This document shows, piece after piece, positions 1-64,000 of a stretch of 64,000 nucleotides of DNA. Position 1 is the stretch's first letter, and each line of letters starts with the position of its first letter. The position numbers and the translations under genes were made by a program. A model generated the notes under the pieces. It made no database searches and was not told where the DNA came from. It was given only the letters and a program-made list of their open reading frames with translations. The stretch comes from Amoebophrya sp. A120. Taxonomy: Eukaryota > Protista > Dinoflagellata. The DNA lies in assembly GCA_905178155.1 (NCBI GenBank), contig CAJINV010000011.1, positions 1,949,939 to 2,013,938 on the forward strand, written 5' to 3'.

Positions 1-3000
1 GCAGTAGAAGTACAGCTGGGAAGCTGCTGGTGCAGCATCTGGGCAAATTGCAGGCTGTTCTGCTGCAGCTGCGTCGTGAGGCTCGTGCTATCCAATCTGC
101 TTGGAGGCAACATCGCTAGTACGCCCTGATGTTGATTCCCGCTCTTCATGAGCGCCGCCGGGTCAGCCGGGAGGGAGAAGGTGCGCTGCAACTCCCGCGA
201 TTTGCCCGAATTCCGGGCGGCCGGGACGAAACCAGCCACGCCATTCGCGTTCGGGGCCGACTGCGCAGAGGGCTGGTCCGGAAGCTTCGGCAGCGGGTGA
301 GAAGTATTATTATACTGAAGATGGTGCGCCGGCAGGGGCTGGCCAGTAGTCGAAGTCGTGGTTCCCCGAGCGGTAGTTGCCATTTGATCTGAGATTCAGT
401 GTTCATCTTTTTATCCTCGCAAGGCTGAGCAATTGCGATCGTCTACAAGATCACTAAAACAACATCTTCGGTACTATATCAATTTGATTGACCAGAACGA
501 AAAATCCCAAAATTTACCTTGTCCGTGTTCGGCCTTCTTTGCGTCCTCGCCGGTAGAGGTTTTCATCCCCTCCACTCTCGAAGCATTTTGTCCTGGCACG
601 TTTTGTTCGCCCTGCTGTCCATTTGGCGACGCAGAAGGCAACTTGAACGGTGGTGGGGGCGGTGGGGGGCCTGAAAATACTCGCTTTATGTTGTATTGAT
701 GTGATAAATATGTCGTGTGTGTAGTGGCCACCTCGCAGCGGTGATGTACAACTTCGTAGGTACGTGATTCCGTAGATTTCTTTTTCAAATATGCATCGGA
801 CTGACAAGGAGAGGCAAACAAAATTGTGTCAGTACACATTCCCTTCTTGGTCAATCGCCTCGGTGGCGGTCCAGCGGCCTCTGGAATGAACGGTGCCAGC
901 ACAAGGTCGTTCGGAAACGGCAAGAGGGTATGAGAGTGAAAAGAAAATTAAGAACTAATTTCCTTTATTGTTATGTCACTTTCTGATCAACTACACATCA
1001 GTTCATCCAGAACGTGAAATTCCCTTCTGCGAGTAGTATCTTGCTATTATGCCAGACAAATCGAGAACCAAACCCCCTTCTAAAAAAACGATGAACAGCG
1101 GGCAGTGCGCTAGTGCTGTAGTACTGTCACTCACGAGTTGTATACATCAGTCTTGCTTTAGCTTTTTCTGGTGCATGCTGACAATGTATGAATTGATAGT
1201 GACAGGCTGAAACGTCACTTAAGCGGGATGAAAGTAGTTCTCCTCCACTTTCGTAGGCAGCTGGCAGCGGCGTAAACCCCGGGGTCGTGAGCGACGCGTC
1301 TGTAGTGACGTCGTGTGTAGTGTCTTCTGATGTTGTGAAGAAGACGGGATGAAAGAAACGCCAATGCTATATAAATAGCTTTCATCAAGGTAAATAACAA
1401 TCTGTACCCGTGTGCATCCCGGTGAGCTGGCTCTGGTTCAGCATGTGCGCTGCCGCGGAGGAGACCATCGCTATGGAAGCGTCAGGATTGAAATCGTCAA
1501 AGTTGAAATAACTTGTAATGCATAAAATCGATACCAGTTGGAAGCCCACTTTCTAAGCGGCTTTTGTCATGCTGCTTTGTCGCCGACGACTGCTTTTGTC
1601 ATGCTACTCTGGCAGCTCTATCGCAGACCCAAAACAGGCTGACAGTCGGCCGCGCTTGCCGTCCCTGCAAGAGAGGCACTTCATGCCTTGCAGTTTATGC
1701 ATGAGAAATTATTTCAACTTTGTCGATTTCGATCCTGACGCTTCCATAATCGCGGCCGTAGTCGTAGAAGTGTTCAAAGCCGAAACCGTATGAGAGTGCA
1801 CAACTCCCCCTCCCCCGCACTTCTCATGCAAGATCCCAAATGCAAGCGCCGCTTTGTGGCACCCTTTGCATGACAGACTTCGCCGGAAGAAGGCGCCCAA
1901 AGAACAGTACTACAACACTAGGTGCCTGAACTTGTCATGCGGAGCCCCCACGCGCGCTGGTGTTTGTATTGCTGTAGTGTATGCCATACAAATGAGGGCA
2001 TGGGGAGTTCTTGTGCATTCTCATAAACCGGGGAGGCGAGGGCGGTAGACTGGTCCGCGCGGTTCTTTAACTGCTGCCCATAGTTCGGCACGTGCTTCTG
2101 GCGCTGCTTCCGCGGAAGCACAATGGCGCAACGGAGCTCGGCTTCCTGTTGAAATGGAAGTAGTTTTGTTGGACGATAAGGCCCGCGTTTATTCCATTTG
2201 ATTTTTACCACAAGTACGTTAGCATGATAAAAGCGTTTTTTGACTCTCATTCTTCATTCCTATTTCTTTCCCCGGAACAAGTGGAAACACTGTACTGTTG
2301 TACACTATGAGCGTAGCGGCAGTTGGCGCCGTAGCTGCACTTTTCCGGGTTGTTGCACATCTTGGTTTTCATAAACGCCTTGGTCGACTGCAGCTCCGAC
2401 TTCAAATGCGCATACGTACATATCCTGTGTAAACACGTCCCCACCCCAGAGTTGTCATGCTAAACAAAATGCGACACACTTTGCCCCCCCATTGTACCAT
2501 GGCCGTCATGCGGATTTGCAGTGACAGGAAGATTTGTAATGCGCATGTCCATGCCAGGCATTACCAATCGCGTTTTGGAATTTGTGATGCTCTAAACAGG
2601 ATAAGCAGATGGATTTGTGATGCGATTGCCCTTGCTAACATGCACTACACTACGGACTGCAACTTGTCATGCGTGGCTCCCAAAACTTCTGGATTCGTGT
2701 TGCTAAGATCCCAACTTGATTTTCGCTTGGGGACGTTTTTACATATGATAGTACAGTAGGGGTTGTCACACCGGTCCCACTTCAGCAGGTCCGGACACAT
2801 GGCAGTGCGGGTCTGTGTAGAAGTTTTTGCGCTAAGTAATCTTTCAGTTGTCACTCAATTCGAATTTTTTCAGCCGTCCCATCATGATGGGTGAACTGAT
2901 AGATACCCCCGTTTTGCTCTTCAGTCTCGCGCTCCTAAACATGAATTTGTATAAGCAAATGGAAAGACAACTATAATCCGTCGTAGCAAACAAAACAGAT

Positions 3001-3952
3001 AGTGCAGCAGAATGTTCATTCTCATTGAAACACTCTACTACATATAAAGATACAAGATCCGGCTTGGGCCGCAGCTCGTCGTAGCTGTGCGCGTGATGGC
3101 AGCTTTCCCCCCACCGGCACTCGCCGTTTAGGTGATAGAAGCACATTATGCATTGCAAGCATGTCTGGAAAAATGCGCGATTTTTCATGCTAGTATGGCA
3201 TGACACTGAGCTCTGTATTGGGTAGGGCCAACATCGGTCACGCACAAACGCTGCTTCTCATGCGAAATACGCAACACAGAGCCACGGAAAAATCTGTAAT
3301 GCTTGCTGGCGCAACATAATTACAGTGTGCTTTACTAATCACTGACATGCACCATCACAGGTTTCCAGAAAATCCAGACATATTTGCAATTCATACACAT
3401 TTGCGTCTTGTAGAGTTCCGTGTTCGCCTTTTGCCGTATGGAAGCGTCAGGTTTGAAATCGTCAAAGTTGAAATAATTTGTAATGCATAAAATGCATGAC
3501 CCGAGGCACGTGTGTTGCAGAGCAGGCAAGTGAGGCCGATTGTAAGCCTGTTGGGGGCTACAGCTCGAGCTGCTAAAGTAGCATGAGAAAATCACTCTTC
3601 TTTGCCTAAACAGCGTGACAAACTGGATTTAGGGACCACCGAAATTTGTCATGCACCACTTGGAAACTGGGTTCCAACTGGCGTCCATTTTATGCATGAC
3701 AAATTATTTCAACTTTGTCGATTTCAACTCTGACACATCCATATGCCGTTTTGTCGAGGTAGTGGCCTGTTTAGAAGAAGGCATGAGCAGTCCACCTCCA
3801 CCGCCACCGGCAGTTGCGCTGTTCATACCAGCACCCATCCCTTGTTTCCCACCATTCCCAGCCCCCAACGGCGCGCCGGTTGGGCCACAGGGCGGACAGA
3901 TCAGAGGCGGTGGCACCGCCATGGTCCCCATTATCTGGGAAAACGGATCCAT
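1..3952 (-). CDS. Tandem CCCH zinc-finger RNA-binding protein (multi-exon; 3' end runs off the window)
   Basis: ATG at 3952 (MDPFSQIMG). Spliced sequence gives three CCCH fingers: YKTQMCFYHLNGECRWGESCHHAH, TRTAMCPDLLKWDRCDNPYCTYAH, KTKMCNNPEKCSYGANCRYAH. Five introners plus GT-AG introns at 2813-3053 and 2146-2303. P/Q-rich C-terminal exons below 1471 are less certain. Confidence 0.85.
1472..1748. mobile_element. Introner family A
   Basis: ~40-bp TIR TATGGAAGCGTCAGGAT..AAAGTTGAAATAA; TSD ATCGC. Confidence 0.92.
1789..2025. mobile_element. Introner family D
   Basis: TIR TATGAGA.TGCACAA; TSD AACCG. Confidence 0.88.
2421..2750. mobile_element. Introner family C
   Basis: TIR TATC..TGTAAA.ACGTCCCCA; TSD GTACA. 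Confidence 0.9.
3147..3395. mobile_element. Introner family B
   Basis: TIR TATG.ATTGCAA..ATGTCTGGA; TSD CACAT. Confidence 0.9.
3437..3743. mobile_element. Introner family A
   Basis: Family A TIR; TSD TGCCG. Confidence 0.92.
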
Positions 3953-4765: not shown

Positions 4766-6456
4766 TCAAATGTCCAACTCTTTCCCCCAGGGCCCGAGTT
4801 CCTTGACCCCCTCGATTGTCGCGAAGTAGCTGTCTACCAAGGCCTTCGGGACGTCCTGGACTTTTTCGTGCGACCACTTCGCCGCCCGCTTTTCTAGCAG
4901 CAGTGCCGACACCCCCTCCGCAAAGTCCGCCTCCGGTTGAGGCCGGAGGCAGTGCATGGCCATCTTGTACTCCGTTCGCAGCGCGCTGCGGAGCGTTTCC
5001 GCGTCGCTCCGGTGTCGCTCCATCGCCGCAAAACTCACCTTCAGCGACAGGGGGGACATGTCGCGGAGAAGTTTCAGGTACTTTTCCGCAAAATCAGTTT
5101 TCTCGTCCTCCAGCCGTTGCATCACCGCCTCTACCGATTCCGCACTGTGTCCGAAGCACCGGGAGATCAGTTCCGAGTCCGCACCGGAGATGGTCGGCTG
5201 AACACCCACAGAGTCGAGTTTCGAGACCTCTTTCACCACGACATCCTCCAGTTTTTCCAAATGCGACTGCACGGCGGTCGGGGTGACTGCCCCGGTGAAA
5301 CTTCCCAAGTGGGCCTTGACCGCCTCTAGATCCTGCTGCTTCACGAAGTGCGTCCCCACACCAAAATTTACGCAGTCCGCGGCGTTCAGTCGCGCGCCTG
5401 TGAGCCCGAGAAACCGGGCGATCGCAACGGGACTGCGGTTGGCAAGGCGCGACAGGCCCCAGGTCATGCCCACATCCGGAAACAAGCCGATCTTGGTTTC
5501 CGGCATGGCAAACATGGTTTTCTCAGTCACAATGCGGATGGGGTTGTGGAACCCCAACCCAACGCCGCCACCCATCACGATCTTGTCCCAAACGGACACC
5601 GTGACGACGTTCTCCTGATTCTTTTGCGCGATCTTGTAGTCCAGCTTGTACTCCTTGTGGAAGAACTCCCCGCCCAGAGTGCGATCGGCGCACTTACTCC
5701 CTATCCTGAGTAAAAACATACCCACACCAGAGTCAGGATGGGGATTTTGCAACACAAACCTAGGAGTTTTAGGAGTCACGCATGACAAGTTTCAGTCCGT
5801 AAGGTAGTGCAAGTTAGCAAGGAAAGCCGCATCACAAATCGACCTTCTGATCCTGTTTAGAGCATTACAAGTTCCCAAACACGATTGAAAATGCCTGTCA
5901 TAGTCATGGGGTTGCGCATCACAAATGTTCCTGTCATGGCAAATCTGCATGACAACTCTGGGGTGGGAACGTTTTTACACAGGATACTCCCGCGCAACGC
6001 TTCCGCCAGGGCCGCCACGTCGCCCCCGGCACAAAACGCCTTCTCGCCCGCGCCCTCCAGCCACACGATGGCGTCTTGGCGCGGGATGCGGTTCTCGTAA
6101 ATCTCCTCGAGAAGTTCAATCATCGTGAGGGAAAGGGAATTCAACTTTTTCGGCCGGTTCAGGGTCACGCAGTGCAGTTTGGATGAAGTCGTCGAGGATG
6201 TTGTTTTACTCGTACTCGTAGGATCGTACGGTGCATACAGTACCTCCGCCTCGGTTGTACTAGAGCTGCTTGCGGAGCTGAACCGGCGAGAGGTGGCAGA
6301 GGACGTCGTGGTCGTCGTGAGAGAACAAGGAAAGAGTCTTCGCTGCTGCAGGTTCATCTGCCGAGAAGAAGTAGAGGAACCTGACGCCAGAATCTGATGC
6401 GAAACCTGCAAGACACGGGTCGCAGGGCCGCGAAGGGGGGAGCAAGTTGGCGACAT
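4766..6456 (-). CDS. HIBCH: 3-hydroxyisobutyryl-CoA hydrolase, mitochondrial (crotonase family)
   Basis: Motifs TLNRPKKLNSLS, AFCAGGDV, IVMGGGVGL, FAMPETKIGLFPDVG, DFAEGVSALL; S/R-rich transit-peptide-like N-terminus. Removing introner 5702-5986 plus one TSD joins ...LRGS/KCADR... in frame. Confidence 0.93.
5702..5986. mobile_element. Introner family C
   Basis: TIR TATCCTG.GTAAAAAC; TSD CTCCC. Confidence 0.92.
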
Positions 6457-7499: not shown

Positions 7500-10400
7500 G
7501 CATCATGCCTGAAGATCTGAAGCCCTAATGAGTAAGCCCGTAAAAGAAGTCTCGCCCTGAAGATTCAGCAGTCTAAGCGCAGGACGGCGCCCCCTCTATC
7601 AGGACTTTATTTTTCATCATACACAGAAGTGGTTCTTGTTACAGTAAAAGTAGCACGATATTTGTTCTTCAAGACAGCACCCTTTCAGCCACGACGTTGT
7701 ACCAGTCCTGACTTATTCATTCTTACGGGTTGTTCTGCAGTGCCCCGGGGTGTACGCGGAATCTTGCTTGAAACAGACACTCCTCGACGTTCAGTAGCAC
7801 CTTCGGTTGGTCAAAAAACTTCCCAAAGTGCTCCTCTAACACGTCCAATACCTCGCCGGTAGCGTCCGCGGCCATTATGCTCAGTCCCCGCTTTTTCCAC
7901 GCCTCGAACAGCTCCTTCAGCTCCTTCAAAGCCGTCGCGTCGATGGAGTTAACCTTTGTAGGGGAACGAGTGATCGAATGTGAATGAGAACAAATACTTA
8001 CAATATGAATCGACACAATAACAGAGATAAATCCGGCGCATCACAACCACTGCGTATCTTCACTGAGTGATGCAAGAAAGTAAAAGAGAAACATCCCATG
8101 AAACAGGAGCTCGACGCCAAGGCGATAGACCACAACGACCAAGAGCAAGACCAAGAGGTGCTGGCGGTATATGCAACAATAAAAATGAACTCTCTCCTTC
8201 TACCTGGCTCCAAACGGTGACGATGACCTTGATTTCTCTCCACTGCTTTTCCCGTTGCAGCATTTTCTCCACTTCCTCCCGAATAAACTCGATATTTGCG
8301 AAGAACATGGACTATGCATTGCAAAAGCTGCATCGTACTTCTAGTATAAATCGCATGACAAATTTCCTGAGCATGAAATGGAATTTGTCATGCTGATTTC
8401 CCTTGGGAATCAGATTTGTCATGTAGATCTGCGATTAGTACGAGTGCGATGCTTTTGTATTTGATATGGACGCGCCGAAGGAAAAAATCACCACACCCTC
8501 GAATTGGTGCACGGTAATCTCCAGTTTTCGCCCCCGCTGCACGTCATACAGAGACGAGTGCTCGTCCAGTTTGCCCATTTGCGACACGCGGGGAAATATG
8601 GAATGCAAATATGTCTGGGTCTGGATGGATGCAACTTGTCATGCGAATCCGAATCATGCAAAAATCTGTGTTGCATGAGTGCCAAAAGCTGTCCACTTTC
8701 GACCAAATTGGGAGAGAGTTTCTGATGCAGGATAGGCATGACCACAGAGACCTCACAGAGTCTGCCATGCTAGGTTTCGCATTCCAGACTTTGACTTCAA
8801 CTTCATGGGTCATGGAAACCTTGCATGACAAGTTTACACTCTTCCAGACCCAGACATATTTGCAATCCATAGGAAAGACCACGTCGCTGATCATAATGAA
8901 GAGACTCAGCGCGACGGAGAGCGCCACACCCTGCAACACACCCTATGAAAAGGAAAAATCCCCCCACCCCATATCACAAAGGAAGTCTGTGATGCTGGAT
9001 TTGCGTACACAAATCAGATTTGTATTGCAGGAAGGCATTGCGGCCAGATCCCCAGGCTAGGGCGGGGCGTATGGATCTAGTTGGTCAGCATTGCAAACGG
9101 CTGACCTTTAGGCCCAACAGCATGACAAATCGCTTCCATGATGGGGCGGAAGCTTCTGCCCTTGTCTTCTTGCAAGACAAACATGATTTGTGGCCTCAAA
9201 TCAGCAACACAAATTTTCGGAAACATACCCTTTCGATATGGGGAGGGGGGATTTTTCCTTTTGATACGCCCAACAGAATGGTGCCACCACAAGCCAGGAC
9301 CCAGACCTGCGGACGAAAAGTTTCTTTTAGGTTGAGATTCATTTCATCGGCGCTGAGCATTTATTTTTCCTTGTCGTTCGTGTCCTCAGCAACAGATTAT
9401 TGTGTTCTTTCTAGTCGTATCTGTACCAAACCGAAATTATGCAGCACACGACCAAACCAGGAAAAAAAACGCTGCTAGTAGAATTAAGTACATTCAAAAA
9501 ATTTAAAGATGAGTACTAGTTTACTACTGTACCAAAATATCCCGGTAGAATCCCACCACCGCCGTGGTTGGTAGCTTTGGTATATTTATTGTGTAGTCGC
9601 TCGTGCTGCCGCGCTGCACATCCCCTCCACCTCCCGATTGTTGTACTATGGATTGGTTTGTGCCGCTGCCCTCCTTTCGCTCTTTCGATGGGGAAAGCAA
9701 GGCCGACCGCTGGAACGAGGGAACCTGCTTTATCCTGGCCTCGGCGAATTCGGTGGCCATTTCCGCAAAGTCTGCGTCCACCCCGCCCTGCGTGAGCTCG
9801 CCAAGAGACCCTAGATTCTTGTTCAGACCGCCGTTGGTTCCGACGTTTTCCGAGGACAATATTCTCCGGATACCAGAACGCGATTTGGACACACTCAAGG
9901 GAGACGACCGCGGGGAGAGTCCTGCGGTCAAGGTGTTGACGCTTTGCGAAGCCGGGATGTTCATGTTTAATAGCAGGGGCTGCTTCAAATCAGCAACGTT
10001 TGCCGTCGGAGAGAGCGCATTGTTGGTGTTGCGGGCCGGGTTGCTTGTGTCCTCGTTTGCTGTGGTATAGGTATTGAAATCAGTAATTTATCAAAATTGG
10101 AGCAGAACAAATGAAGGTATAAACGAAAGCAAAACTGACTCGTCACAGCCAGCACAGTCGGCCGCACACTAAAGCAGCATGACTCTTGTGTGATGATCAT
10201 ATATCCATCCAAATTGTATTCATTTCAAGCTGCTCACCTGGCGAGCTATCCGGCAGAAGTGCCCCGGGCATTTCTACCATCACCGGCAAGTTCGGCGAAG
10301 AGCCTGCCCTGCCAGAAGCGGACGCGCGGGCAGGAGACCCAAGGCCGTCCTTCAAGCTGGAGGACGGCGGGCTGGGTTCCCGACTGCTTATCCTCCGGAC

Positions 10401-12522
10401 CACCTGCTCCACTTGTTCCTTGGTTTTCTCCTGAATTTTCGACGTTTTTATCAGCCAGAAGAGGTAGGGGAAGTCCTGGAGATTCGTGCACGCGAGGATG
10501 ATAATGCCGGACAGCATATCCTATGGGAAAACGTCGCAACCCCATAACTGTCATGCAAATCTGCATGCTGAAAATGTTTCTCATGCAGAGCCCCATGACA
10601 AGCGTGGCTTTCTATTCGCGTTTTGGAATTTGTAATGCTCCAATCAGCACAATAGGCTAGGTCTGTGATGCTGCTGAACAAGCTAAACTGGATTACACTA
10701 CAAGGCAAGACTTGTCATGCGCAAGAACCAAAGGTGGCTGATTTGTCTAGCAGATTTCCCATCTTGACTATCGGATGAGGACGTCTTTTTGCTCAGGATA
10801 CAGCACACACTTGGGAATCCAGAAAATGGCGGACGAGAAGAAGATCTATCCTGTGCAAAAGTATCGTACTCGTAGTAATTGCATTCCTGCATTACAAATT
10901 TTTTTCAAAAGGTAAATCCGCATGACAAATTTTATTTCTCATGCTGAGGAAATTTGTATTGCATTTATACGATTACGATACTTTTGCAATGCATAAGATC
11001 AGGCCGCTGGCAACGACGCAGGTGGCGACCAGCCCGCCGATCTGCGAATTGATGCCCAACATCGGCAACAACGCGGCACGGGAGAGGGAACCGGACACCG
11101 GAAACGACTGGAAAAATCCGCCCGTGATCCCCGCGATCCCCAGGGCGATGGCTTCCTGGCTTGCCTTGATACTGTACCCCTGTTGCAGGGCGACCCGGCG
11201 GGAGGAGCTGAAAGTGGTGATGAACGAGGTCAGCGCGATGAGCAGGGAGCCGGGGAGCAGGGAAACAAACGTGACGGAATCCGGCACGTACTCCCAGGGC
11301 GGCGTGAAGCCGGGCACGCCTTGCGGCACCGGGCCGACCACGTTCACGACCAACCCCGTTTCTTGGCTGTCGTTGACCGCGCCCGGGGTGCGGAGGGAAT
11401 ACACCAAGCCGCCGAAAAACAGTACGACAAAGAGCTCCTTGAAATCCAGAGACTGCAGCAAAATTTTTGCCCAGGTCTCTTCCCGCTTCTTTAACGAGGC
11501 CTTCAGCTGTTAAGGATAGTGATCAAAAAAAAATTTGAAGAAATGCCGGATCTGCAGAAGATGATCATGCCGTACAAAATCTTAAAAGCAAAGTACAAAT
11601 TTCTCATTCACACCCTGGAGTCGCGAAATTTGAATCATTCCCAGGAAGTTGCCCTAGTTCTTCTTGATGTCAACAACATAGAAAAATCACATGAAATTAC
11701 AATTAGAATTGAACCCAACTATAATACCGCTTTCGATTTGTGCAAGACGGCCATGACACAGAGCCCTATTGCCACCGCCGCCCAGTTCACCGCCGTTATG
11801 TTCGCAAAGGTGCCTGTCAAAATTGGCACCACGCCTTTCGCGTTGTACAAATGTTTGTCCAGCCCCGTGAGTTGCTTGCTCTGCGTGGCTGCAATGATCA
11901 GGCTCGCGCCGGAAATGAAGCCCGACAGGGTCGGCTGGGATAAGAACCGGACCAGAAACGTCAGTTTCGTCACCCCGAAAATGAAAATCAGCAGCCCGGT
12001 GGTCAAGGCCAAGTAGCTCGCGACCCGGGTTCGCACCTCGATGTCCCCGTACTTGGACAGCTGGTCAGCGATCATCACAGCAGCCACCGCACCGGAGGAG
12101 ATGGAGGCGTGGGGACTAGTGCCAAAGATCGCGTACATGATGGCCGGGCCGAGGGCGCAGTAGGGCCCCTGCACCGTGACGGTGGTCGCGATCGCGGCGT
12201 GGGCCATGGTCTGGCAGATCAGAATGAGCCCCACAATCACGCCGCCCACAATGTCGCCCTGCAGTTTTTTTCCGCAGTCGTAGTCGGGGAGCCACTTGGT
12301 AATCGGGACGTGGTCATTCACAAATTTTACCATCCGCGACTTCCCGATCTTGGCCTTTTCCTTCAGCGATTTCCTCGCTTTCTGCTCGATTACGTCCTCG
12401 ACGTAGGCCAGCGGCGGGGGAACAATCAGGTCGTCGTCCTCCAGGTGGAGCATGTCCGAGCGGTCCATGCGGGACCGCGAATACGTGTAGTGGTCTTCAC
12501 CACTGATGCGCGCATCCACCAT
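7500..12522 (-). CDS. sulP: SulP/SLC26 sulfate-anion transporter with C-terminal STAS domain (ends approximate)
   Basis: GDIVGGVIVGLILICQTMAHA, YAIFGTSPHASI, FLSQPTLSGFISGA, FPVSGSLSRAAL, IFWIPKCVLSGIII; STAS: SMFFANIEFIRE...VNSIDATALKEL. Five introners plus GT-AG introns. The last exon (below 7725) is not resolved. Confidence 0.9.
8313..8466. mobile_element. Introner family F
   Basis: TIR TAT..A.T.CAAAAG..ATCG.ACT; TSD TGGAC. Confidence 0.88.
8597..8871. mobile_element. Introner family B
   Basis: TIR TATGGA.TGCAAATATGTCTGGGTCTGGA; TSD GGAAA. Confidence 0.92.
8944..9266. mobile_element. Introner family G
   Basis: TIR TAT.AAAAGGAAAAATCCCCCC.CCCCATATC; TSD CACCC/CGCCC. Confidence 0.9.
10517..10800. 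mobile_element. Introner family C
   Basis: TIR TATCCT; TSD CAGCA. Confidence 0.88.
10847..10995. mobile_element. Introner family F
   Basis: TIR TGCAAAAGTATCGTA.TCGTA; TSD AGATC. Confidence 0.9.
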
Positions 12523-20479: not shown

Positions 20480-21201
20480 TAGACGACCTGACACTTTTAC
20501 TTAGTATTAATTTACTCGGATATTATATCTCTCATGCTTATTGATCTTGAGTTTAGAAATCTTTCTCAGAATGCGTTTCTACACCTCATGATCCGGGAAC
20601 TGGTCACAAGTAATTTGCGTCACAATGCTTGGTTGAGCAGATACGGTCACTCCTCTGATCCCGAGGCGAGCGTACAACCAATGACGAGTGGGCAACGGCG
20701 ATTTATAGTAGACTCTACTGCTTCATCTGCTTTGGGTTTCTATCTATTGCCGATATCATCAACAAGAAAGGCGGTGTGACATCATCATCATAGAAAACAG
20801 TCATAAGAATGATACCGAGAAATAGAGATAGGACACTAAACTTGATGTCCGAAACCCGTTGCAAATAGCAGAACACGTCGCCCGCAAGTCTGATCTGCAC
20901 GAGGCAGTGCTAGATGACTAACCCTGCCGCTACTTGCTTGAGGCAAGTTGCTTCCCGAGAACAACCCAAAGTTGTTGAGGACCTCAGGCAGCCCGTGTTT
21001 TATTCTCATTTACATGCATTTTTTTTCTTTCTAAACATACACCAGAAACGGAAACCCTGTGCTTTATCATAAAATTACTATCTTGCCAGCATCGTCCTCC
21101 GAGCCACTGTTTCTATCCACAGACACCTCGAAAATACTCAGCAGTGCTTTTTTAAATTGTCATCTGACTGGTCATTTATTTTACATGCTATCAAGTCTTT
21201 T

Positions 21202-50200: not shown

Positions 50201-50658
50201 AGCAACACAAATTCTCGGAAACAAACCATTTCGATATGGGGAGGGGGGATTTTTCCTCAGAATATGTCGCTGCCCCACTTTAGGCTGCCCGAAGTGACGT
50301 TGCAGAAGGGCTGGCGGGCGGTTGCCGCGGTTTTCCCCGTCGCCGCTGCTGCAGAGACGACCTTTCCAGCGGCAGTTGGGCCCGTGCCGGTGGCCGGTGG
50401 GTCGGCGGTCGGCTTGTCGTCGGCGGAAGCAAGGAAAGAAGTAAAGTACGGGTCCTGTTTGGGTTCGTATCTCGTATGGTGTGCAGAAGTTGTACCAGCG
50501 ACCCGCTGCTCGATGCGAACTGCAGGAAGTGACTCCTCGGCTGCAAAGGACGTTTCTACACGAAGCGCACTCGCAGTCGCAGCTTTCGTGGCGGAACAGG
50601 GCACAAGGAGCGGTTGGCCGACGAAGAGAGAATGCAATGCTGCCTGCTGGGAGAACAT
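47213..50658 (-). CDS. msrB: Divergent MsrB/SelR-like methionine sulfoxide reductase with N-terminal extension
   Basis: Spliced: LKWGSDTANANFICCNNHDGAENAGYF...VLFYDAADTGTPVF...ESSQHGWPSFRAGEV...KLGHKFQDQEGKDRYCINLICVAG. Seven in-frame introners plus a probable GA-AG intron. Start codon uncertain. Confidence 0.72.
47556..47799. mobile_element. Family E element lying inside a larger intron; TSD decayed
   Basis: TIR TATCG.AAGAAAAAA.TGTTT; flanks GAAGC/GACTG. Confidence 0.75.
47863..48124. mobile_element. Introner family B
   Basis: Family B TIR; TSD CCGGG. Confidence 0.88.
48189..48486. mobile_element. Introner family C
   Basis: Family C TIR; TSD TGCTG. Confidence 0.88.
48559..48722. mobile_element. 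Introner family F
   Basis: Family F TIR; TSD TGCCG/TGCTG. Confidence 0.86.
48832..49161. mobile_element. Introner family A (diverged)
   Basis: Family A-like TIR; TSD AACAC. Confidence 0.86.
49207..49480. mobile_element. Introner family B (left end AAT)
   Basis: Family B TIR; TSD CCGGT. Confidence 0.85.
49588..49909. mobile_element. Introner family G
   Basis: Family G TIR; TSD TGCAC/TGCAG. Confidence 0.88.
49942..50264. mobile_element. Introner family G
   Basis: Family G TIR; TSD TGTCG. Confidence 0.9.
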
Positions 50659-50991: not shown

Positions 50992-51246
50992 CATGATCCA
51001 ATATGTCTGGGTCTGGAAGAGTCCAAGTCTGTCATGCGCGGCTAGCATCACTCTCAACTCTGTGACGAGTGAGCAGGAAACGAGCCTCTTGCCTGTCATG
51101 CAAAAACGCAGTTTGTGATGCGCAAAACGAAACACATAGCAGCTCCAAAACTTGTCTTGCGTCGTGGCTGCGTACTGGAATGCGCCTACCATAATTCACA
51201 GACTTGCATCACAACCTTCCAGACCCAGACGTCTTTGCATTTAATA
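50992..51246. mobile_element. Family B element, host context unresolved
   Basis: TGTCTGGGTCTGGA / TCCAGACCCAGAC TIR core; TSD TACCA; left end degenerate. Confidence 0.78.
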
Positions 51247-52730: not shown

Positions 52731-55700
52731 TTAACTACTTAGAGAAGCCTTACCCTTTTCAGGGCCCGCAGAAGGGGGCCCGTCTAGGGAAAGCACACGC
52801 CCCAAACCGAACGAGGGACTGCCGGCGGAGCTACTACGAGGAGAAGCGGTACTTGTACTACTAGCATTGCTATCGTCATCGTCCAGTGTTTCAGCCGGTT
52901 GCTTCTGCGTCGCTGTCATTTTCATTTCTACGTCGCGGACTGTCCAAGACGAACCGCTCGCGCGCTTTGCGATGATTTTAAGTTTGTCGCCCAGCGGCTT
53001 TTGAGAAAATTCGAGCAATTCCTGTTTTTTCCGTAAAACCACCTCCGTGGTTTGTCCCATTCCGGCAATTACGGAGAATACATTCTCCGCGAAATTCGCG
53101 AAGCGCTCAATCGGAATTTTTCTTTTTACTTGTGACAAAACCTTTCTGAAAACATCGGCCACTTGTTTACCCAACGCCTTGCCAAGCACCTCGATAAGCT
53201 TCGACCTCTTTTTGCTACTCCAGTTGATAACAAAGCACTTGCCGTTAGGTCCTCCAAACGCGAGCGCCCACAGAAGCTTATTCGGAGATGATCCTGCAGT
53301 TGAAACCTTGGGGCCACTGTCCGTCTTCGGCAAATAACGAGTTCGGGTTTCCTTTTCCAGGTCTATAATTAATTCAAGTTCCCTCCGAACTCGATCATCA
53401 GCAGAAGCTTGCAGCGTTTCAAGTTCAAGCTCTAGCTGCCGCTGCTTCTCCTGCAAAGAGCGTATTTCTGGGCTTTTTTGAAAAAGTATTCTTTCTGCCT
53501 GATATTTTCTGACGTCCACGCCCTCCTCAGTCGACAAAGGTCTGTATTCATGATGACCTGAATCTCCTGAATCCACATCGACATCGCCCTGATCTCCCTG
53601 AGGCGGAGAAGGTAAAGTAGGAGTCTTTCGCTCCTCGGCACGTTTGTGTATCCGGCGCACAAGAGTCTTCCGAAGAGCTTCATATGTTAAGAAACCTTCT
53701 GGAGAAAATTCTTCTTCTTCATCGGCCGCGTGGATTTCCTTAAGCAGCTCCTGCCCGTCTTCATCGAAAAACCGAAAGTTCTCTTCCATTACCAGCGTTT
53801 TCTGGTAAGCGATAAAATCCAGAATCTGTCGGTCGAGTTCTACTAGTAGTTCTCCGGACATTGAAGAGTAGAAAGTCGCGAAGAGGCTGGAAAGAGACGG
53901 ACCGAAGAGTGGCACAGCTGCAAGTGCCGACCGCACAGGTGAAAGGATACGATCTATAACGAGTTCTTTCAGGGCCTTCGTGAACTCGTCGACGCATATG
54001 TCGCCGCTGTTGTCCGCGTCCATGTTGGGCATCTCCGAAACGGCGATAGACTTGGCCATGTCGGCCATCGACTCGGGCATTGCATCGAGTATCTTTTGGA
54101 GGCTATCGGCCAGGGTAGCCATGAGACCCTCGGCGTTCTGGTTCATCAGTTCATCGTACTGGGCATGTAGGATATCGAAAAAACTCGGAATCGGTAATAC
54201 CAGGTAGCCGTTTTCGTAATGTTTGTTCATGATCGCTTGTATTTTTGTTCTTTTATCTTTTTCAGACCCATCGGCTTGCGGATACTGAGCGCCGCTTTCA
54301 AGAAGTTCCATGGTTGCGCTCCATTTAGCACAACCATGCAATGCGGAGATTTTCCGCGCTATTCCAGTGACGTACTCCGCTTCGGCCATGTCGTTCTTGA
54401 CTCCGTAGGAGTTAGCGAAAAACATGTACATGCACCGTTTTCCCTTCCCCTCTGGCGGCGCGGCCTGCACGTCCCTCGCCTGACGGGGATGCAGTACTTC
54501 TGCGATTGCTTCGTCGAGAGCGTGTGTCGACGCGAGGATTTCCCCCATGTCCTGCGCACGGGACCGGCGATCCGGGTTGTCTCTCTGTGATGCTAGATAC
54601 GTCAGAAGCAAGTACGGGTCGTTGCACTTCGGCATCCAAAATTTTTTTAGATTTGCTTTGTTGCTGTAATCTCCATGGATCCCCGCCGGCGAACAGGCCT
54701 GTGCGCCGATCATTTCAACTGCGCTGGCTTCTTTCCCGACCCTGTGATAACGTAGATAAGGGCCAAATATTCATCTCGCTCGATTAAAACAAGAGAGGAC
54801 GCATCGTGTGTGCACGCAATATTGTTTGCAAAGACAATCTCCAGGATGGTGTCCTCCGGGGGAGGGCAGACCGCAATGTAAATGGGCATCTCATACCTGC
54901 CGTTCCCGTTTCTAGTAAGTACTACAAACTTCCCTATATCAAGCTCAAGCGTTCGCTCACGTCTGCGAAAAACAAACTACTTACATACTTTTTGTAGTCT
55001 GCAAATTCTTGTTGCTATTCAGAAATAATTCGGCACAAGAGACTCATGAGCCTTCATATATCAAAGTCCAACAAGTGTAGACGTCTTGTTCTCGAAACCA
55101 AATTAGTAAAAAAGTGAGCAAGTAGCAACACCCTTTCTCCTCGCTTGATGTGGCCGGCGCGAGAGGCTTCCCCGTCGGATGCGCACTAACGTCGCTGTGC
55201 CTGTTTGGGTTTACCTGGAGGTATAGGGAATTATATATTTTGCAGGTTCTTCAATTCAACACTGGGAAGGGGAGCCCGGACCTCTAGTTTCTGCAGCCTC
55301 CTAATCTATATCTATTCGCCGCGGTTCTACATCTACTCCAGCTCCAGCAGTAAAATACAGAAAGCCAAACGAAAAAAACAGCCATGCCATAACGGAGAGA
55401 TGAAGCTGGGAGACTCAACAGTACTTAAGGCGCCAAGCAAGGGCCCTGGTTTTCTTAGATAAGCTCGTTTTCCCGAGCGTCTGACAGAAAGCCAAGTGGT
55501 TGGGGTGTTCTCGAAGTGTTTGTGCTTGTACATATTAAAGCTTTGTTTACAGTGAAGCCCACGTGTAGTGCCTGACTACTTATACCTCCCGAAAGCTTTC
55601 TCGTTCCGCAGGCAGGTCGCCTCCGCCATTCGCCTCGCTCGGGGCCGAGTCTTTGTGTTCCGGTTGGGCGACCGCGGTACTGCCACTGGTCTCGTGTTTG

Positions 55701-58700
55701 GACCTGGAAACAAAGGAAATTGGAACTAATCTCACTGCTCCTTTTCAACCCAAGAAAGCGCCTCTGTGCTATTGCTCAAAACAGACAGGATGATGCCAGT
55801 GGCACTAGCCCTGGTGACAAAATAGTTGCGAGCAGTCGGTCTGCGTCAAGGATCTGGGCCTTTGCGGTGAAAAAAGGACCCAGCATTGAGCTGCACCTGC
55901 AAACCGAACGCCCTTGTTCGTGGTAAAAAATTTTCGACTTCGAGGATAAACATGCAACTCATACAACATCCACTCACGCTTAATACCCTCCGGCTTCGCT
56001 TGGTGCGGCGGGTGCGAGGGGCTTCTCCGCCGGCGAGTCTTTTGGGCCCGGGACTTTCTCTGTCTGTTTTTTGAATTCGCCGGACCTGTCGCTGTGTGGG
56101 TTTACCTGGTGTGGGATTTCCAACATCAACTCAAAGCAATCAAGCCCGAACTACTTCGCACTTTCTGCAGCTTTGTAGCTGTAGTCCGTTATCGGAAAAT
56201 TTACAAAAGACAGCAACGAATCAAACGAAAACAACAGCGATGAAGAAGTGGTTGGGTGCCGCGCGCTGACAATCATGGTCTTTCTATATATTATATGCAC
56301 AAAGAAGTCGTGAAACGTACAAACCGCAAATGCTGCTGCTGCTTTAACATTACTATTATCTTCGATCTATTCCTGGGCACGCAAAACAAAGTAGAGAGCG
56401 TTTCGCAAAATTATACATAGAGTTCCCCTTACAACTACTTAGGCCTCCGCCTACTTCCTGACTATACCTCGCGAAAGCTTTCTTGTTCCGCACCTAGATC
56501 GGCCGCGCCCGTCGCCTCGCTGGGCACCACACCCCCTTGTTCCTCTTTAGCGACCGCGGTACTGCCACTGGACTCGTCTTTGTACCTGAAAACAAACGAA
56601 ATTGAAACTAGTCTCACTGCTCTTTTTCACCCCGAAGCGCCTCGGTGTCTAAGTCTATGACGAAAGCACGCTATTTAATAAAACAAACAGGACGACGTCA
56701 CTCGCCGTCGCTCTGTTGATGAAATAGTGATGGACAGTTGGTCTGCGTTCAGTCTTAATTGGTCCTCTACGACGAACAAAGGCCGAGCATTCAGCAGCAC
56801 GTGGAAACCGAGCCCTTTTGTTTCTGTTATATTAAACTTCAACTTTCGGCTTTGAGGATGGACATGCAATTCATATACGAAATTCTACTCTCCGCTAACG
56901 CTTAGTACCCTCGTCCGGCGTCACTTGGTGCAGCGGGTGCGAGGGGCTTCTCCGCTGGCGAGCGCGAGTCTTTTGGGCCCGGGGCTTCCTGTGTCTGCTC
57001 CTTGAATTCGCTCGTCGAGCTGTCGCTGTTGGGGTTTACCTGGTGTGGATCATTTTGTGAGGTTTTTCAACTGAAAATCAACACTGGTGAGAGACCAAGA
57101 GCTCCCACAACTTTCTGTAGCCCTACAAGTACAAGTACTTTCTTCGTGACATCAAAACACTCCTGTACACTTACAGCGAAACTGCAACAGCGCTACTAGT
57201 TCCCACAGGTAAAAAAGTACCTCGAGAAAGTTTTCTCGTTCCGCAGCCAAGTCGTTCTCACCCGTTGCCTCGCTCGGCGGCGAGTCCTTGTGTTCCTGTT
57301 GGCCGACTGAGGTACTGGCACTGGTCCCGTGTTCTTTATACCTGAACAAAGTTCATAAGCGCTTTTTCATCGCGAATTGCCTCGTCATGTGAAGCTAAAA
57401 CAGACTCGATGTTAGTGTTACACGACAAAACAATAACGAGCAGAAGTAGTCAGGCTACTTTCGATTTCAAAAATTTAACCTTTACGAAAAAGTCCAAACA
57501 TTCAAGTGCAACTGCAAGTGCAAGAAAAATTACGACTTTCTCACGGCAGTCGAGCATGCAACGCGTAGAAAATCTACCCTAGTCTAGTGCTTAATAGTAC
57601 CCTGCCACTTCGCCTGGTGTGGTGGGTGCGAGGGGCTTTCCTTCCGCCGATGCCTTCGATCCCGGTACCGGGGCCGCATCGACCTCGGCGTTGCCGCCAT
57701 TCTGGTGTCGTGCTCGTGTGTGCTATTTTGAAAGGTTGACACAAATATAAAACTTCAAGAAGCGCACAGTCATGCGCCAAGATGTCAAAGGAAGTCACTG
57801 AGTGAGACAAGTTTACTGACTACTAACTAAAGTGCGTTGTTAATATATAGGCGTGAAAATTTGGTTTCCCATACAGTAAACGAAGGGTAAGCTATTTCAT
57901 CATGATTTATGCTACGTGTAGTATACATCGCCAGTAGCCAGTATGCATTGCAAATATGTCTGCGTCTGGAAACATGCGAACTTGTGGGGCCCTCTGTCGG
58001 TGCCAGTCCCACAAAAATATATCATGCACAAATAGCACAAGCTTGCCACTTCTAGCCACACTGAGTAAGGAGCATTCCTCATGCATAGTAGGCATCGCAA
58101 GACCCATCGCCATGCAGAAGTACCTCCGTCCTGCATGACAACGCTCAGCGTTTCTATTCCAGACCCTGACATATTTGCAGTTGATAGCCACGTCCGCCTC
58201 GCCTTTCGGCTTGCTGACCTGCGAGTCGGCACCTTGTTGCTGTTTTTGTATCCCATGAAAAAACTGCTTCACTGTGATCTGATGGCATGGCTTTACAAGA
58301 TCATTTGCATCACATTTCAGTTTGCTGTTACAGAAACTTTGCCTCCCAAGGGAAAACATGCTCAAAAGTCCAATGGTCTGCAATTGTAACAAGACAAATA
58401 GTTCTGTGCTCCATTCTATGCGTCACAAGTTCACAGCAAAGCAGAGTTTTGTCTCGATATCTTGGGACAAGGAAGTACTAGACTGCTCCGTTTGCGTGTA
58501 CCTATCGGCGAAAAAAATTGTGTTAGTGTAGGATAATGATATTATTTGTGAAATTAAAATATTGCCACACATCTACACTTGTCATACCAGACAAGCACGA
58601 AGTCCCTGTTCTTCATATGCGACGACGTTTGGACATACTTACACTTTCCGCCCGGCAGGGAAGCAAATTTGTCATGCTTTCACAGCAACAATTCTGCTGC

Positions 58701-60151
58701 ACTAACGCTGTCTGGTTTCCTCATGGATAATATTAGTACCTCGAAGAAAACAGAGGACGAGACGTCGCGACAGAGTTCGCGGGTAAAGACTTGTTCACTT
58801 TATTGCGCAAAGTTCGTCGGGTAATTCCTTATACTTACCTAATATCATGAAGCTTTAATATATTTATATTTGTTGTAAAAAAACCGCGTACAGTCGTATC
58901 CTGAGTAAACACGCACGCACCCCAGCGAGCTCGTCGTACTACAAATTTGGATATTCTAAATTCGAACAAAAAAGTGGATCTGCAGTGGTGCACCTGCAAC
59001 TGCTAGCTTAAAATTATGACTAGATCCAACTGGTGTCTTGTCATGCACGATTCGCAGAGCTGCTTAATTCGTCGTGTGTAATCTTGACTCTCTGCGGCGG
59101 GGTCGTGGGTAAGTTTTCACATAGGATAAGTCGGATTTTTTCTTCCATCTTTGTTTCGCTTCGTGTTCGTCGTTGGGAATCATACGAAAAAAGTGTTTTA
59201 TCACTGTAAAATAAGGATTTTATATCCATTGCAAATTTCGCACGACAAGTTTGTTCTATTTGAATGATACACGTTAGCACCAACATTTCTGCGACATACA
59301 TTCATCTGGATCTGCATTTAAAAAAGTTTACAGTGAATAAACAGTTTTTTCTATACGATAGGGTGCGTAGCGACTGTTGTGTAACGCCGCCAAGTATTCG
59401 ATTGAAGGCCCGGCGTATGAGAGTGCACAACTACGTCCCCTCCCACTCCCCCTCGTTGTGTTGTGCATCACAGTAGTAGTACCAAGCCCACTTCACTGCT
59501 TGGCACTGGTTGGGCATGGCACTGGTTGCGCATGGCAGGTTCTAGGAGTAGCGGGAGGATCCGAAGGACCGCGGCACAAACCTGCGTAAACTTGTCACAC
59601 AAAATGAACTTGCACTTTCGCCAGCCCTTTTGTTGTTACGAAAAAGAAAAATGCCCCTGAAATTATGATTCGGAGAGGAAGAAAGTTGTGCGTTCTCATA
59701 TGCTCCTGCCGCCAAGGCTCGCTTGTCCCCCGCCCGTATCTTGTTCTGCCTGTATGTATGGGCAATTTGGTAAAGATTTGTTTTTACTTTTAGCGAACGC
59801 CAGCTACTTCTATTACACGTTGACTCGATAACTAAAAATGCATACAAGAAATATACGAGTTGTGGGTACTATAGCTTTCTCATGGAGAGAATGGCTCCCT
59901 TCGTGTCATGTGCAGTTGGTCTTGGTGGTCTACTTAGCAGTATAGTAGTTATTAACCACTCTTTTGAATTTTCATCTTGATGGAGAAACGACGCTACCGA
60001 GGAAAGATACCTTTTCGTTCCTCCTGCCCAACGCGGCGACGAGCGTCGGCCCGCCGCCCGTGCCGCCCCAAACGACCAGAGTTGTAAAGGTGAAGAAGAA
60101 CTGGGACGCGCACCAGCACGTCAGGACCGCGAGAAGCTTGAACATTTTCAT
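52731..60151 (-). CDS. Probable secreted protein: signal-peptide-like exon, tandem two-exon repeats, then a 660-aa exon with an EF-hand and coiled coil
   Basis: Exon 52731-54740 is a long ORF containing DADNSGDICVDEF. Upstream GT-AG repeat exons at 55130-57720; first exon MKMFKLLAVLTCWCASQFFF at 60151. Linking all exons into one gene is inferred. Confidence 0.5.
55130..57720 (-). repeat. Tandem duplication of a two-exon module including its introns (~0.7-0.9-kb unit, 3+ copies)
   Basis: GGTGCGAGGGGCTT-type block near 55155, 56010, 56936, 57625; GAAAG..TTCTCGTTCCGCA...GGTACTG block near 55591, 56473, 57226. Confidence 0.8.
57942..58186. mobile_element. Introner family B
   Basis: Family B TIR; TSD GCCAG/GCCAC. 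Confidence 0.86.
58249..58459. mobile_element. Introner family E
   Basis: Family E TIR; TSD TTTTG/TCTTG. Confidence 0.83.
58897..59128. mobile_element. Introner family C (diverged)
   Basis: TATCCT ends; TSD AGTCG. Confidence 0.82.
59178..59360. mobile_element. Family E-like element, degenerate ends
   Basis: GAAAAAA.TGTTT..TCACTGTAAA inverted repeat; TSD unclear. Confidence 0.65.
59416..59700. mobile_element. Family D element without recognisable TSD
   Basis: TIR TATGAGA..GCACAACT; flanks CGGCG/TGCTC. Confidence 0.75.
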
Positions 60152-61735: not shown

Positions 61736-63753
61736 TCAAATCTTTTCTAGGAATGAATTCGTGTTTGAAGACTGCTCTGACGCCGCGCCGTCCCCCGTAG
61801 CGGCTTTGGCTTCCGCGTCGGCGGCCCCGTCCACCTCCTCGTTTTCATCCTGCATGAACGCGGTCTGGCCCTCGTTGTCAACACCCTGCTCCGCGCCATC
61901 ATCATCTTGATCATATGCAGTGCAAATATGTCTGTAATGCTGCGCTTGGTGGAATTGGATTCTAAAAAAAATTTGTATTGCATGAACAGCAAGAAAAATC
62001 CAGTTTGTGCTAAGTACGCGGAGAGGGCAAAATTTCTCATGCGGTAGAGGCATCACGATGTCCTCTAAAAAACTGTGATGCTAGGGCATGCATTGCAGGC
62101 TTCATGGGTCATCTTCCAAAATATGCATGTCAAACTTGACAATCTTCCAGACCCAGACATTTTTGCAGTTGATAGATCACCGGCCTGCTCCATTTCCCGT
62201 TCCTCCTCCGGTAAATTGGTGCCGTCACCCGGGTTATCAAGTGCAAATATCCCTGGAGGTCTGGAAACTTGTAATGCTGGATTGGGAATAGTGAATTTCT
62301 TGTAATGCACAGACACGCATGCGAAATCATCTCTGCGCTGCCTAGTGTTGCGTTTACCGCATGACGATGACTACACACTGCGTTTTTGCATGACAGGCAA
62401 AAGGGTCTTTTCTTGGACACGCATCACAAGCTTTGCAGTCTGTGACTGTGTCTGTCATGCCAGACAAGCATGACAAACCTTGCATTTTTCAAGACCCAGA
62501 CGTATTTGCAATCCATACGGGTACTTGCCCGCGATGCACACGAGGTTGACGCAGTACCGGTTTCCCTGCTCGTCCGGCATGTTGTGGCCCAGGTGGATCG
62601 ACGGGATCTCGATCACTTTTCCCACTTTCGTGTGGCTGGTTGGCATATGCATTGCAAGAGTATCGGTATCGCACTCGTAGTAATCGTATACAAATCCTAT
62701 TCTCAAATTGATGTCATGCGCTTTTATACTAGTAAGTACGATAGTACTTATGCAGTCCATATGGCACCGTGATGATCTCAGAGGGCACCGGATTCAGATT
62801 CGGCGACACCTGGCCCCGGTAGGAGGGGTGCCGCAGCGGGTTGTGCTCCGAGACCGACTTCGGAATTGGCTCACCGCCCCCCGTGGCGCCGCCGAAAGAC
62901 TCCGGGTTGGTTTCGTTTGCGGTCACATTCTATGCATTGCAACTATGTCTGGTTCTGGAAGGATGCACGGTTTGTCATGCATATTTTGCATGGCCCATGA
63001 CGCCTGTAATGCATGCTCTAGCATCACAGATTTTTAGAGGGCTTCCTGATGCACATTCCGCATGAGAAATGCCCTGCCCGCGTAGCACAAACCAGACTCC
63101 TCTTGCTAGTCATGCAATACAGATTTTTTTGGAATCCGAAGACAGCATCACAAGTCACAACCTTCCAGAAGACATATTTGCAAGGCATACGTTCATCACG
63201 CGGTCGAAGTTCACCTCGTCGTCGCGGAACGAAGGCCACCCGTGGTACTTGGACTCCAGGTAGAACTCCAGGTAGGACCGCGGGTTCGGCCCGAATCCCG
63301 GGACCCGGAACAGCTCCTCGTTCGGGTCAGAAGAGGAGTAGAAGCTCATGTAGGCGGTGCCGTTGGGGAGCTCCTCGGGGAGCGCGTACCCGGTGCCGGT
63401 GAAGTTGAGTCCCTGGTAGAACGAGGCCTGCGGCTCGGCCAGGCGCTGGGGCACGGTGCAGCACACGTTCACGGCCGTCGCCTCGTCGACCAACCAGCGG
63501 AGCTGCGGCCGCTCGGGCAGGCAGGACACGGCCCCAAAGGGAACCTCCTCCGGTTTGGGGTACTCCTTCTGCTTCTTCCGTTCTTGCAGCGTCGTTTTCT
63601 TCTGCATCACCGAGGACTGCGGATCATTCCTGGCATCCTCGACCGCTCCGTCGACGGGGCGCTTCTTGTCGTTCAACAAATCTTTGGCGGTCCTCGTCTC
63701 CTGGTTACTTCGCTCGTCCTCTTCGCTGTTCCTTGTCGTTGACGTAACTGCAT
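61736..63753 (-). CDS. msrB: MsrB/SelR-like protein paralog (5' part outside the window)
   Basis: LRWLVDEATAVNVCC...ESKYHGWPSFRDDEV...HLGHNMPDEQGNRYCVNLVCIAG; four complete introners removed in frame; acidic tail. Confidence 0.72.
61914..62174. mobile_element. Introner family B
   Basis: Family B TIR; TSD GATCA. Confidence 0.9.
62235..62517. mobile_element. Introner family B
   Basis: Family B TIR; TSD CGGGT. Confidence 0.9.
62646..62761. mobile_element. Introner family F (116 bp, smallest seen)
   Basis: Family F TIR; TSD TGGCA. Confidence 0.86.
62931..63189. mobile_element. Introner family B
   Basis: Family B TIR; TSD CATTC/CGTTC. Confidence 0.88.
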
Positions 63754-64000
63754 TATCAAATGCAAAAATGTCTGGGTCTGGAAGATTGCAACTTGTCATG
63801 CTAAAGCTGAAGCTCATGCAAAAATCTGTCTTGCATGATTACCAAAAGTCGTCCAGTTTTCACCAAGTCGGGAGGGAGTTTCTCATGCAGGATAGGTATG
63901 AGAGAGATCGCACAGAATCTGTCATGCTAGGTCCTGCATTCCAGACCTCATGAGTCATGGAAAAGCAGCATGACAAATCGCGCACTCTTCCAGACCCAGA
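63754..64000. mobile_element. Introner family B (right end just beyond the window)
   Basis: Left TIR TATCAAATGCAAAAATGTCTGGGTCTGGA; right TIR begins TTCCAGACCCAGA at the window end. Confidence 0.85.

Follow-up and report, generated by a model that had tools for sequence, protein, structure and literature searches.

Introners with a common end signature in a 64-kb stretch of Amoebophrya sp. A120 and their loss from RNA without GT-AG termini

Introners and comparable systems

The introners of the dinoflagellate Amoebophrya sp. A120 were described by Farhat et al. in 2021 (PMC7789003). There are 29,850 copies, with terminal inverted repeats (TIRs) which start with TAT and end in a run of A, and with direct repeats of 3-5 nt. 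Their non-canonical junctions are supported by RNA, and genes with both intron types exist. In the parts of that paper covered here, no transposase is reported in A120, the element border is given as unknown or variable, and no family-specific motifs are described. PMC11453091 repeats the 2021 account. Elements that start with TAT, have these repeats and are spliced non-canonically are therefore already on record. Here, the introners in 64,000 nt of the A120 genome were analysed (contig CAJINV010000011.1, positions 1,949,939-2,013,938, forward strand). This whole stretch is called the window, and positions are counted from its first letter. The organism is the same as that of the published elements, and the SulP protein of the window is identical to an annotated A120 protein, P0001. 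The present account differs from the published one in a 5-nt duplication, a 9-bp motif common to the elements, ends whose conservation depends on transcript direction, and a proposed fixed register in which the intron begins 1 nt before the element and ends 4 nt after it (the 1+4 register). Statements about cited papers refer to the portions covered.

A later survey (Gozashti et al. 2025; PMC12130899) ascribes A120 introners to long terminal repeat (LTR), non-LTR and diverse inverted-repeat transposons. Its automated duplication lengths are 2-5 (23 of 58 A120 rows). Family 38 (~810 bp) is labelled Ginger, with "5-bp TSD, TA/TA termini" (TSD, target site duplication) and homology to Copia/Gypsy. 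That remark covers one family, whereas the window elements obey one rule and have no recognisable open reading frame (ORF).

An independent set of elements came from a metagenome scan seeded with the end of introner family F1 (~260 bp). It gave at least 140 loci covering 729 kb (the related loci), which have families, but no unique sequence, in common with the window. Element ends were placed there without using the first three bases, and the matches listed contain 436 unique elements; 805 of their 872 ends read TAT. Among integrase-type DNA transposons, GingerRoot (PMC6839031) also has TA…TA termini, but it makes 6-bp duplications and has inverted repeats of 100-150 bp; introner duplications are 5 bp long, and an exact repeat of length 6 was found in one of the 436. 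TDD-4 and TDD-5 make 5-bp duplications, as introners do, but Ginger1 and Ginger2-TDD ends read TGTNR (PMC2836005), and TGT was found at three of the 872 introner ends. The introners do not fit the full definition of GingerRoot or of Ginger/TDD.

Two other systems of unusual introns invite comparison. Fritillaria borealis has non-GT/AG introns derived from miniature inverted-repeat transposable elements (MITEs); these are handled by a modified major spliceosome (PMC13326754; PMC11282704). Their ends are fixed (AG-AC, AG-AT) and U1 is present, whereas in introners both dinucleotides are free save for the T at +2. The nonconventional introns of euglenids (PMC6221363; PMC11282704) likewise have paired ends, junction repeats, a proposed MITE origin and an unknown mechanism. 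They pair +4 to +6 with −8 to −6 and follow a weak Y|R rule; the introner repeat spans +2 to −5, the bases at the cut follow no rule, and neither Y|R junctions nor the euglenid pairing was found in introners. The literature search, whose scope excluded the figures of PMC7789003 and subscription papers (including Roy et al. 2023), found no paper stating a 1+4 register. The direction-dependent ends, a match of the intron start to the host GTAT donor and the common end signature were likewise not found in the literature covered.

Element structure and loss from RNA

The preliminary description of the window, made from its letters alone, had counted about 62 introners with TAT…ATA ends and a 5-bp TSD. 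The curated set holds 63, and a 64th, an F1-like end match at 63754-64000, runs past the window end. Ends of TAT…ATA are present in 52 of the 63, an exact repeat in 42, and a repeat with at most one mismatch in 56; four are doubtful, with 3-4 repeat mismatches (those starting at 47556, 58502, 59178 and 59416). When direct repeats were scanned by length with no ends assumed, TAT…ATA was found in 28 of 39 hits at length 5 and in none at lengths 3, 4 and 6-10; shuffled sequence gave one hit at length 5. Perfect ends with an exact 5-nt repeat occur in 35 window elements and in none of two shuffles. Among the 436 related-loci elements listed, 298 have an exact repeat at length 5, and no length from 2 to 4 or from 6 to 10 gives more than 42; the 117 at length 1 are at chance level. 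Median element length there is 262 bp.

The TIRs start with TAT and have an A run near positions 11-13, and the junction repeat is 5 nt, as in the described A120 introners. The features of MITEs are also present: the elements are short and non-coding, with inverted repeats, a target duplication and a high copy number, and they vary in presence between haplotypes. In X1, the one DNA run compared (as contigs), end-repeat depth is, as a rough figure, ~30,000x single copy. Two related-loci sequences, L014 and L056, are haplotypes of one locus (~99.8% identical over 11 kb). Two L014 elements are missing in L056, where a single duplication copy remains, which indicates recent insertion or exact loss. 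Five window elements on the minus strand have empty duplicate sites in the window, and the alignment fits only after removal of the element plus 5 nt: 30989-31202 (F5), 31362-31613 (F1), 31701-31911 (F8), 31948-32227 (F3) and 32295-33240 (a long introner of 946 bp). The count leaves out L065 and L120, where a site looks empty at a different length; identity there is 84-86%. The region 30900-33300 is a locally duplicated exon segment whose copies hold five different introners at different sites, so these insertions postdate the duplication. The elements are non-coding inverted-repeat transposons with 5-bp target duplications, and they are Amoebophrya introners, as had been proposed.

The claim that most of them cannot give GT-AG at any slide position also stood. 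Among 58 elements tested (62 minus the four doubtful ones), GT-AG is obtainable in one, the F8 introner at 31701-31911, where it falls in the 1+4 register; none gives it on the plus strand. GC-AG is likewise obtainable in one of the 58. The GT (GC)…AG termini of canonical U2 introns are not those of the introners tested.

Removal of the element plus 5 nt opens long frames, including HIBCH and a frame of 1,310 codons over 15 elements. The SulP frame without its five elements encodes 883 residues, 100% identical and ungapped to P0001. These elements are all on the minus strand: 8313-8466 (F2, ~150 bp), 8597-8871 (F1), 8944-9266 (F4, ~321 bp; one repeat mismatch), 10517-10800 (F3, ~281 bp; weak predicted end pairing) and 10847-10995 (F2). 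Removal of the elements with 0, 3, 4 or 6 additional nt breaks this frame; 2 and 8 keep it. Frames are also restored at 3147-3395 (F1), 3437-3743 (F6, ~307 bp) and 30613-30888 (F1; three repeat mismatches), all on the minus strand. Of the conserved proteins that had been named, HIBCH has its open frame and SulP its full identity, but WDR34 and the CCCH fingers are names that no database match confirmed; these are open frames only, with two weak Pfam beta-propeller hits.

Multi-copy clusters holding window elements number ten by whole length and eight by interior, in line with the earlier count of at least nine families. The families had been called unrelated, and this does not hold. Most element ends have TATSMWNTGCAAA in common. 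A 9-bp motif chosen by eye from the window, TT[GC]T[ACG][AT]TGC, is present in 57 of 62 window elements at ~60x its density outside them, and in 426 of 434 elements overall (9.4 per kb versus 0.15 outside); its distances from the element ends peak at 32-33 and 40-43 nt. With a common end consensus and a common motif, the families are not unrelated. Raw RNA reads of run X9, which has the same species label, match repeat parts of the window only and nothing at junctions. At 8646-8680 and 18009-18048 they hold the F1 end sequence and nothing else of the window, so F1 is common to a different strain or species.

The common end consensus, the common 9-mer and the single duplication length make one transposase type plausible, as had been inferred. 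The search for its gene, or for long elements with like TIRs that encode it, gave nothing in the window or the screened related-loci ORFs. Pfam found no transposase or integrase in the 98 longest of 181 non-redundant related-loci ORFs (at least 230 codons) or in 17 window frames. Two long window elements (992 and 946 bp) and 11 in the related loci that exceed 450 bp showed, by eye, no ORF of a recognisable kind; about half of those 11 are mis-paired ends, and Pfam was run only on the 187-codon ORF of the 992-bp introner at 16714-17705 (minus strand, F2 ends), with no hit. Viral contigs compared with three end patterns gave 0, 3 and 0 matches, and the three are chance matches with no continuing element. 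Rfam gave no match in the window.

Loss from RNA was seen in contigs of runs X3-X6, which come from two samples of one study and were flagged as RNA by guess; GT-AG introns are likewise absent from these contigs. A single X6 contig (4,006 nt) runs across 18 elements as well as two GT-AG introns, and every skip equals the element plus 5 nt. Direct joints were found for 14 elements on the minus strand: 21323-21575 (F1, skip 258), 22027-22359 (F4, skip 338), 22429-22582 (F2, 22423 joined to 22583), 22849-23101 (F1), 23220-23469 (F1), 24500-24773 (F1; weak predicted end pairing), 24912-25217 (F1), 25267-25475 (F5, ~211 bp), 25490-25760 (F9; 3' end ACA), 25893-26148 (F1), 27183-27474 (F1), 27583-27809 (F8), 28305-28557 (F1) and 28610-28884 (F1). 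The other four, also on the minus strand, follow from contig coordinates with exact sums: 23809-24060 (F1), 26544-26823 (F3; 3' end ACA), 27919-28205 (F1) and 28970-29178 (F4; 5' end TAC, weak predicted end pairing). A micro-exon of 9 nt net (25476-25489, minus strand) lies between two introners; its four non-repeat letters are retained in four runs and appear in the joint of 25267-25475. The introners at 30613 and 30989 lie in the same stretch and show no joint. In the HIBCH gene, X6 joins 5694 to 5985 across the F3 introner at 5702-5986 (minus strand), a skip of 290 (285+5).

In DNA the elements are retained: X1 DNA contigs, at 40-49x, enter or cross them and continue unbroken over the boundaries. 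One enters the HIBCH introner, and others cover the whole of 13786-14077 (F1; minus strand) and of 19685-19925. The latter is a degenerate introner (minus strand; 3' end ATG, two repeat mismatches) that is missing from X3, which joins 19679 to 19926. The element plus 5 nt is thus lost from RNA without GT-AG. All 18 elements of the X6 contig were skipped in this way, neither retained nor removed at cryptic GT-AG sites; use of cryptic sites is rejected for these 18 at contig resolution.

The position of the cut can be read where the two duplication copies differ, since the message then shows which copy was kept. Bases of the repeat are numbered here in the direction of transcription. Base 1 is that of the upstream copy in five introns (14141, 19685, 22849, 26544 and 27183), base 2 in one (23809), and base 4 in three (19685, 22429 and 24912). 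Base 5 is that of the downstream copy in the sole intron informative there, 24912, in four runs. This intron spans 24908-25218, with a joint from 24907 to 25219 and no ambiguous letters. The cut after the fourth duplicated base, which makes the intron N-TAT…ATA-NNNN, is therefore exact for 24912. It is narrowed to base 4 or 5 in two more introns, and a general 1+4 register may be inferred for the rest. Two haplotype comparisons fit this, in that the downstream copy is the mutated one, at bases 2 and 4; a third did not discriminate. A codon-likelihood test of which repeat copy is exonic, on 37 mismatches, gave four of seven positive at base 5 (sum −0.93).

Candidate mechanisms of removal

On balance, a relaxed major spliceosome with a fixed register probably removes the introners. 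The preliminary description had instead inferred a second removal pathway alongside the spliceosome. That is not established, and an intron start of N-T-A-T, like the host donor G-T-A-T, points to an altered spliceosome. GTAT is the commonest predicted normal donor of the host: 15 of 72 GT-AG introns in the prediction set have it, compared with 32 of 704 GTs in the background. It also begins three of the six window donors listed. These donor statistics come from model-predicted introns; in a window test, the three predictions compared, out of five, matched introns seen or inferred from RNA. Donor-like bases would stand at +2 to +4 if the 1+4 register, exact for one intron, is general. In Table S4 of PMC7789003 the nine commonest non-canonical classes all start with NT in A120 and with TT in A25, whose elements begin with TTA and two purines. 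Frequencies of 1.5-3.1% are expected for the A120 classes under the 1+4 rule, and 2-3% is reported. The same paper records U2, U4, U5, U6 and nearly all spliceosome proteins as present, with U1 undetected. The major spliceosome of Fritillaria, which handles non-GT/AG introns (PMC13326754), is a precedent.

The ends of the elements are conserved differently according to the direction of transcription. Related-loci copies were oriented by coding potential (n=193) or by their neighbours (n=122 more); the latter matched in 95 of 97 checks. Element orientation relative to the gene is about even in 13 families of at least four copies. End conservation was counted in 281 oriented copies whose repeats have one mismatch at most. 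Three mis-called ends aside, clean single changes at end positions 1, 2 and 3 number 0, 0 and 6 at the 5' end and 6, 2 and 1 at the 3' end (Fisher p=0.005). The first T is never lost at the transcript 5' end, and the 3' end tends to retain the A at −7. Window elements show a like pattern; it should be noted that the idea arose from the window. The mutation skew of the interior (A>G 288, T>C 246) is small and one-directional, and is therefore not the cause of the asymmetry. A transposase should be blind to transcript direction, so the asymmetry points to selection on RNA; under the proposed 1+4 register the bases concerned would be U at +2 and A at −7.

The following series of steps is proposed. 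A transposase of integrase type, encoded elsewhere, would recognise TATSMWNTGCAAA and the 9-bp motif near each end, and would insert the element in either orientation with a 5-bp stagger. The major spliceosome would then do its work with neither the initial G nor the terminal AG. At the 5' end, the element would provide +2 U, +3 A and +4 U, as the GTAT donor of the host does. At the 3' end, distance from the element would set the cut, 4 nt further on, and the conserved A at −7 might serve as the branch point. The paired ends may bring the two cut sites together. As 1 and 4 nt add up to the length of the duplication and the signal is present at both ends, any new insertion would be removed exactly, in either orientation. 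A bolder version falls somewhat short of probable. In it, a major spliceosome that lacks U1 ignores both terminal dinucleotides, uses an N-U-A-U donor, branches within the ATA that closes the element, on its first A, and places the acceptor 4 nt past the element. Transposon and spliceosome would be matched by a ruler, so that one lineage could land anywhere and either way and be removed exactly.

Several observations weigh against a spliceosomal account with a fixed register. Across 187 coding copies the duplication has no G bias at +1 and no AG bias at the 3' end, where a spliceosome might be expected to keep some. There is no regular branch consensus at the 3' end, and the U-rich tract there is conserved no better than its 5' mirror. 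At 19685, a GT…AG pair 1 nt longer exists and is ignored. G·U pairs are no more frequent in the ends than A·C (163 versus 170), and end pairing is predicted to be weak in four of 22 spliced elements, which leaves the hairpin with a putative role. No lariats, circles or snRNA sequences turned up in the material covered. The classes of Table S4 may depend on annotation choices in border placement. For the exact cut there is a single intron, 24912, which is old and pairs weakly; its four runs come from two samples of one study, and a one-base assembly error there would leave only "base 4 or 5". The RNA status of the runs is a guess, and contigs hide rare mis-splicing. No transposase was found in the 98 related-loci ORFs and 17 window frames.

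A separate, non-spliceosomal system is a possible but rather doubtful alternative. A nuclease and ligase, or a dedicated particle, would read the paired ends or the common motif and cut on either side of the element, 1 nt ahead of it and 4 nt past it. The missing terminal dinucleotide bias, the disregard of the GT…AG near 19685 and the undetected U1 (PMC7789003) would all suit such a system, as would the ends themselves: a long stem is possible in most elements, and 18 of 22 have a mean end-pairing probability of at least about 0.5. Euglenid introns, with offset paired ends and reported circles without lariats (PMC11282704, PMC6221363), offer a parallel. However, the bases that are kept fit a spliceosomal donor: +2 U is never lost, and the C and G variants at +4 are also found in host GT donors. 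A25, with different elements, has +2 T as well (PMC7789003), and the stem has no excess of G·U.

It is unlikely that RNA splicing cuts at variable positions inside the duplication, with 24912 atypical and no fixed 1+4 ruler. Base 5 is informative in one intron only, the codon-likelihood test on 37 mismatches did not discriminate, and, according to the legend of Fig. 3 in PMC7789003, splice sites vary in position with respect to the hairpin. Nine of nine calls at bases 1-4, in eight introns, agree with the upstream copy, which is not what a variable cut would yield, and the published Table S4 classes all start with NT. Excision from DNA in an infecting stage, in the style of ciliate internal eliminated sequences and with the message copied from a cleaned gene, is very improbable: the elements resemble ciliate eliminated sequences as short inverted-repeat elements within direct repeats, and one DNA run was compared in contigs that lose rare forms, but the X1 contigs run into or through the elements unbroken at 40-49x, the joint is polar to transcription (four bases from the upstream copy, one from the downstream) and end conservation follows transcript direction.

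Other features of the window and significance

The remaining introners are spread over the window. Near its start, with no strand assigned, are predicted introners at 1472-1748 (F6; exact 5-bp repeat, TAT…ATA), 1789-2025 (F7) and 2421-2750 (F3), the last two from the scan of ends and repeats. On the minus strand, an X6 piece begins at 14412, the edge of the F1 introner at 14141-14412, and the singleton at 15881-16141 (3' end ATC; scan and curated set) is followed by curated elements at 17806-18058 (F1), 18117-18423 (F6) and 33760-34012 (F1). A further series of curated elements on the same strand comprises 47863-48124 (F10; 5' end TAC), 48189-48486 (F3), 48559-48722 (F2), 48832-49161 (F6), 49207-49480 (F1; 3' end ATT), 49588-49909 (F4) and 49942-50264 (F4). 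No strand is assigned to the F1 introner at 50992-51246, which has one CAT end and lies upstream of a gene, or to those at 57942-58186 (F1-like ends), 58249-58459 (F5) and 58897-59128 (F3-like ends), which are in both the scan and the curated set. The doubtful or decayed copies, also without strand, are 47556-47799 (F5; three repeat mismatches), 58502-58730, 59178-59360 and 59416-59700 (decayed, F7-like ends, no repeat). Four more curated introners on the minus strand are 61914-62174 (F1), 62235-62517 (F1), 62646-62761 (short, 116 bp) and 62931-63189 (F1).

Introner ends with an exact 5-bp repeat also surround 34078-46200 (minus strand; 5' end TGT), a predicted intron of 12 kb; excising the whole 12 kb restores the host frame. 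Within it, an open frame of 3,105 codons at 34316-43633 (minus strand) encodes a reverse-transcriptase domain and is likely a non-LTR retrotransposon. At 44552-45294 an exact direct duplication of 332 nt flanks the single N of the window, at 44962, and is possibly an artefact of an assembly join.

Some neighbouring features were also recorded. The gene with the element at 19685 encodes, at 19880-20500 (minus strand), a HAD domain of the RNA-repair protein type (PF18143), with no shown link to introner removal. Two introner-rich genes on the minus strand, 21205-23564 and 61739-63838, have a similar peptide stretch and look paralogous by eye. An uninterrupted frame of 679 codons at 52731-54770 (minus strand) has no Pfam hit and no introner. 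At 55580-57650 a non-coding unit recurs in two to three copies that have diverged (71-83% identical) and lie ~800-880 nt apart, with no Rfam match.

How tens of thousands of introns without the usual dinucleotides are removed in Amoebophrya has been an open question since 2021. What is added here is a testable register, evidence of direction-dependent selection on two bases and a common end signature. A fixed register makes predictions that can be tested: where the excised RNA begins, a candidate A for the branch at −7, and a pair of nucleotides as targets for mutation. It would also allow rule-based correction of A120 gene models. If the spliceosome does the removal, its chemistry can do without the near-universal G at +1 and the 3' AG, and most of the intron gain in the A120 genome would trace to one end signature.

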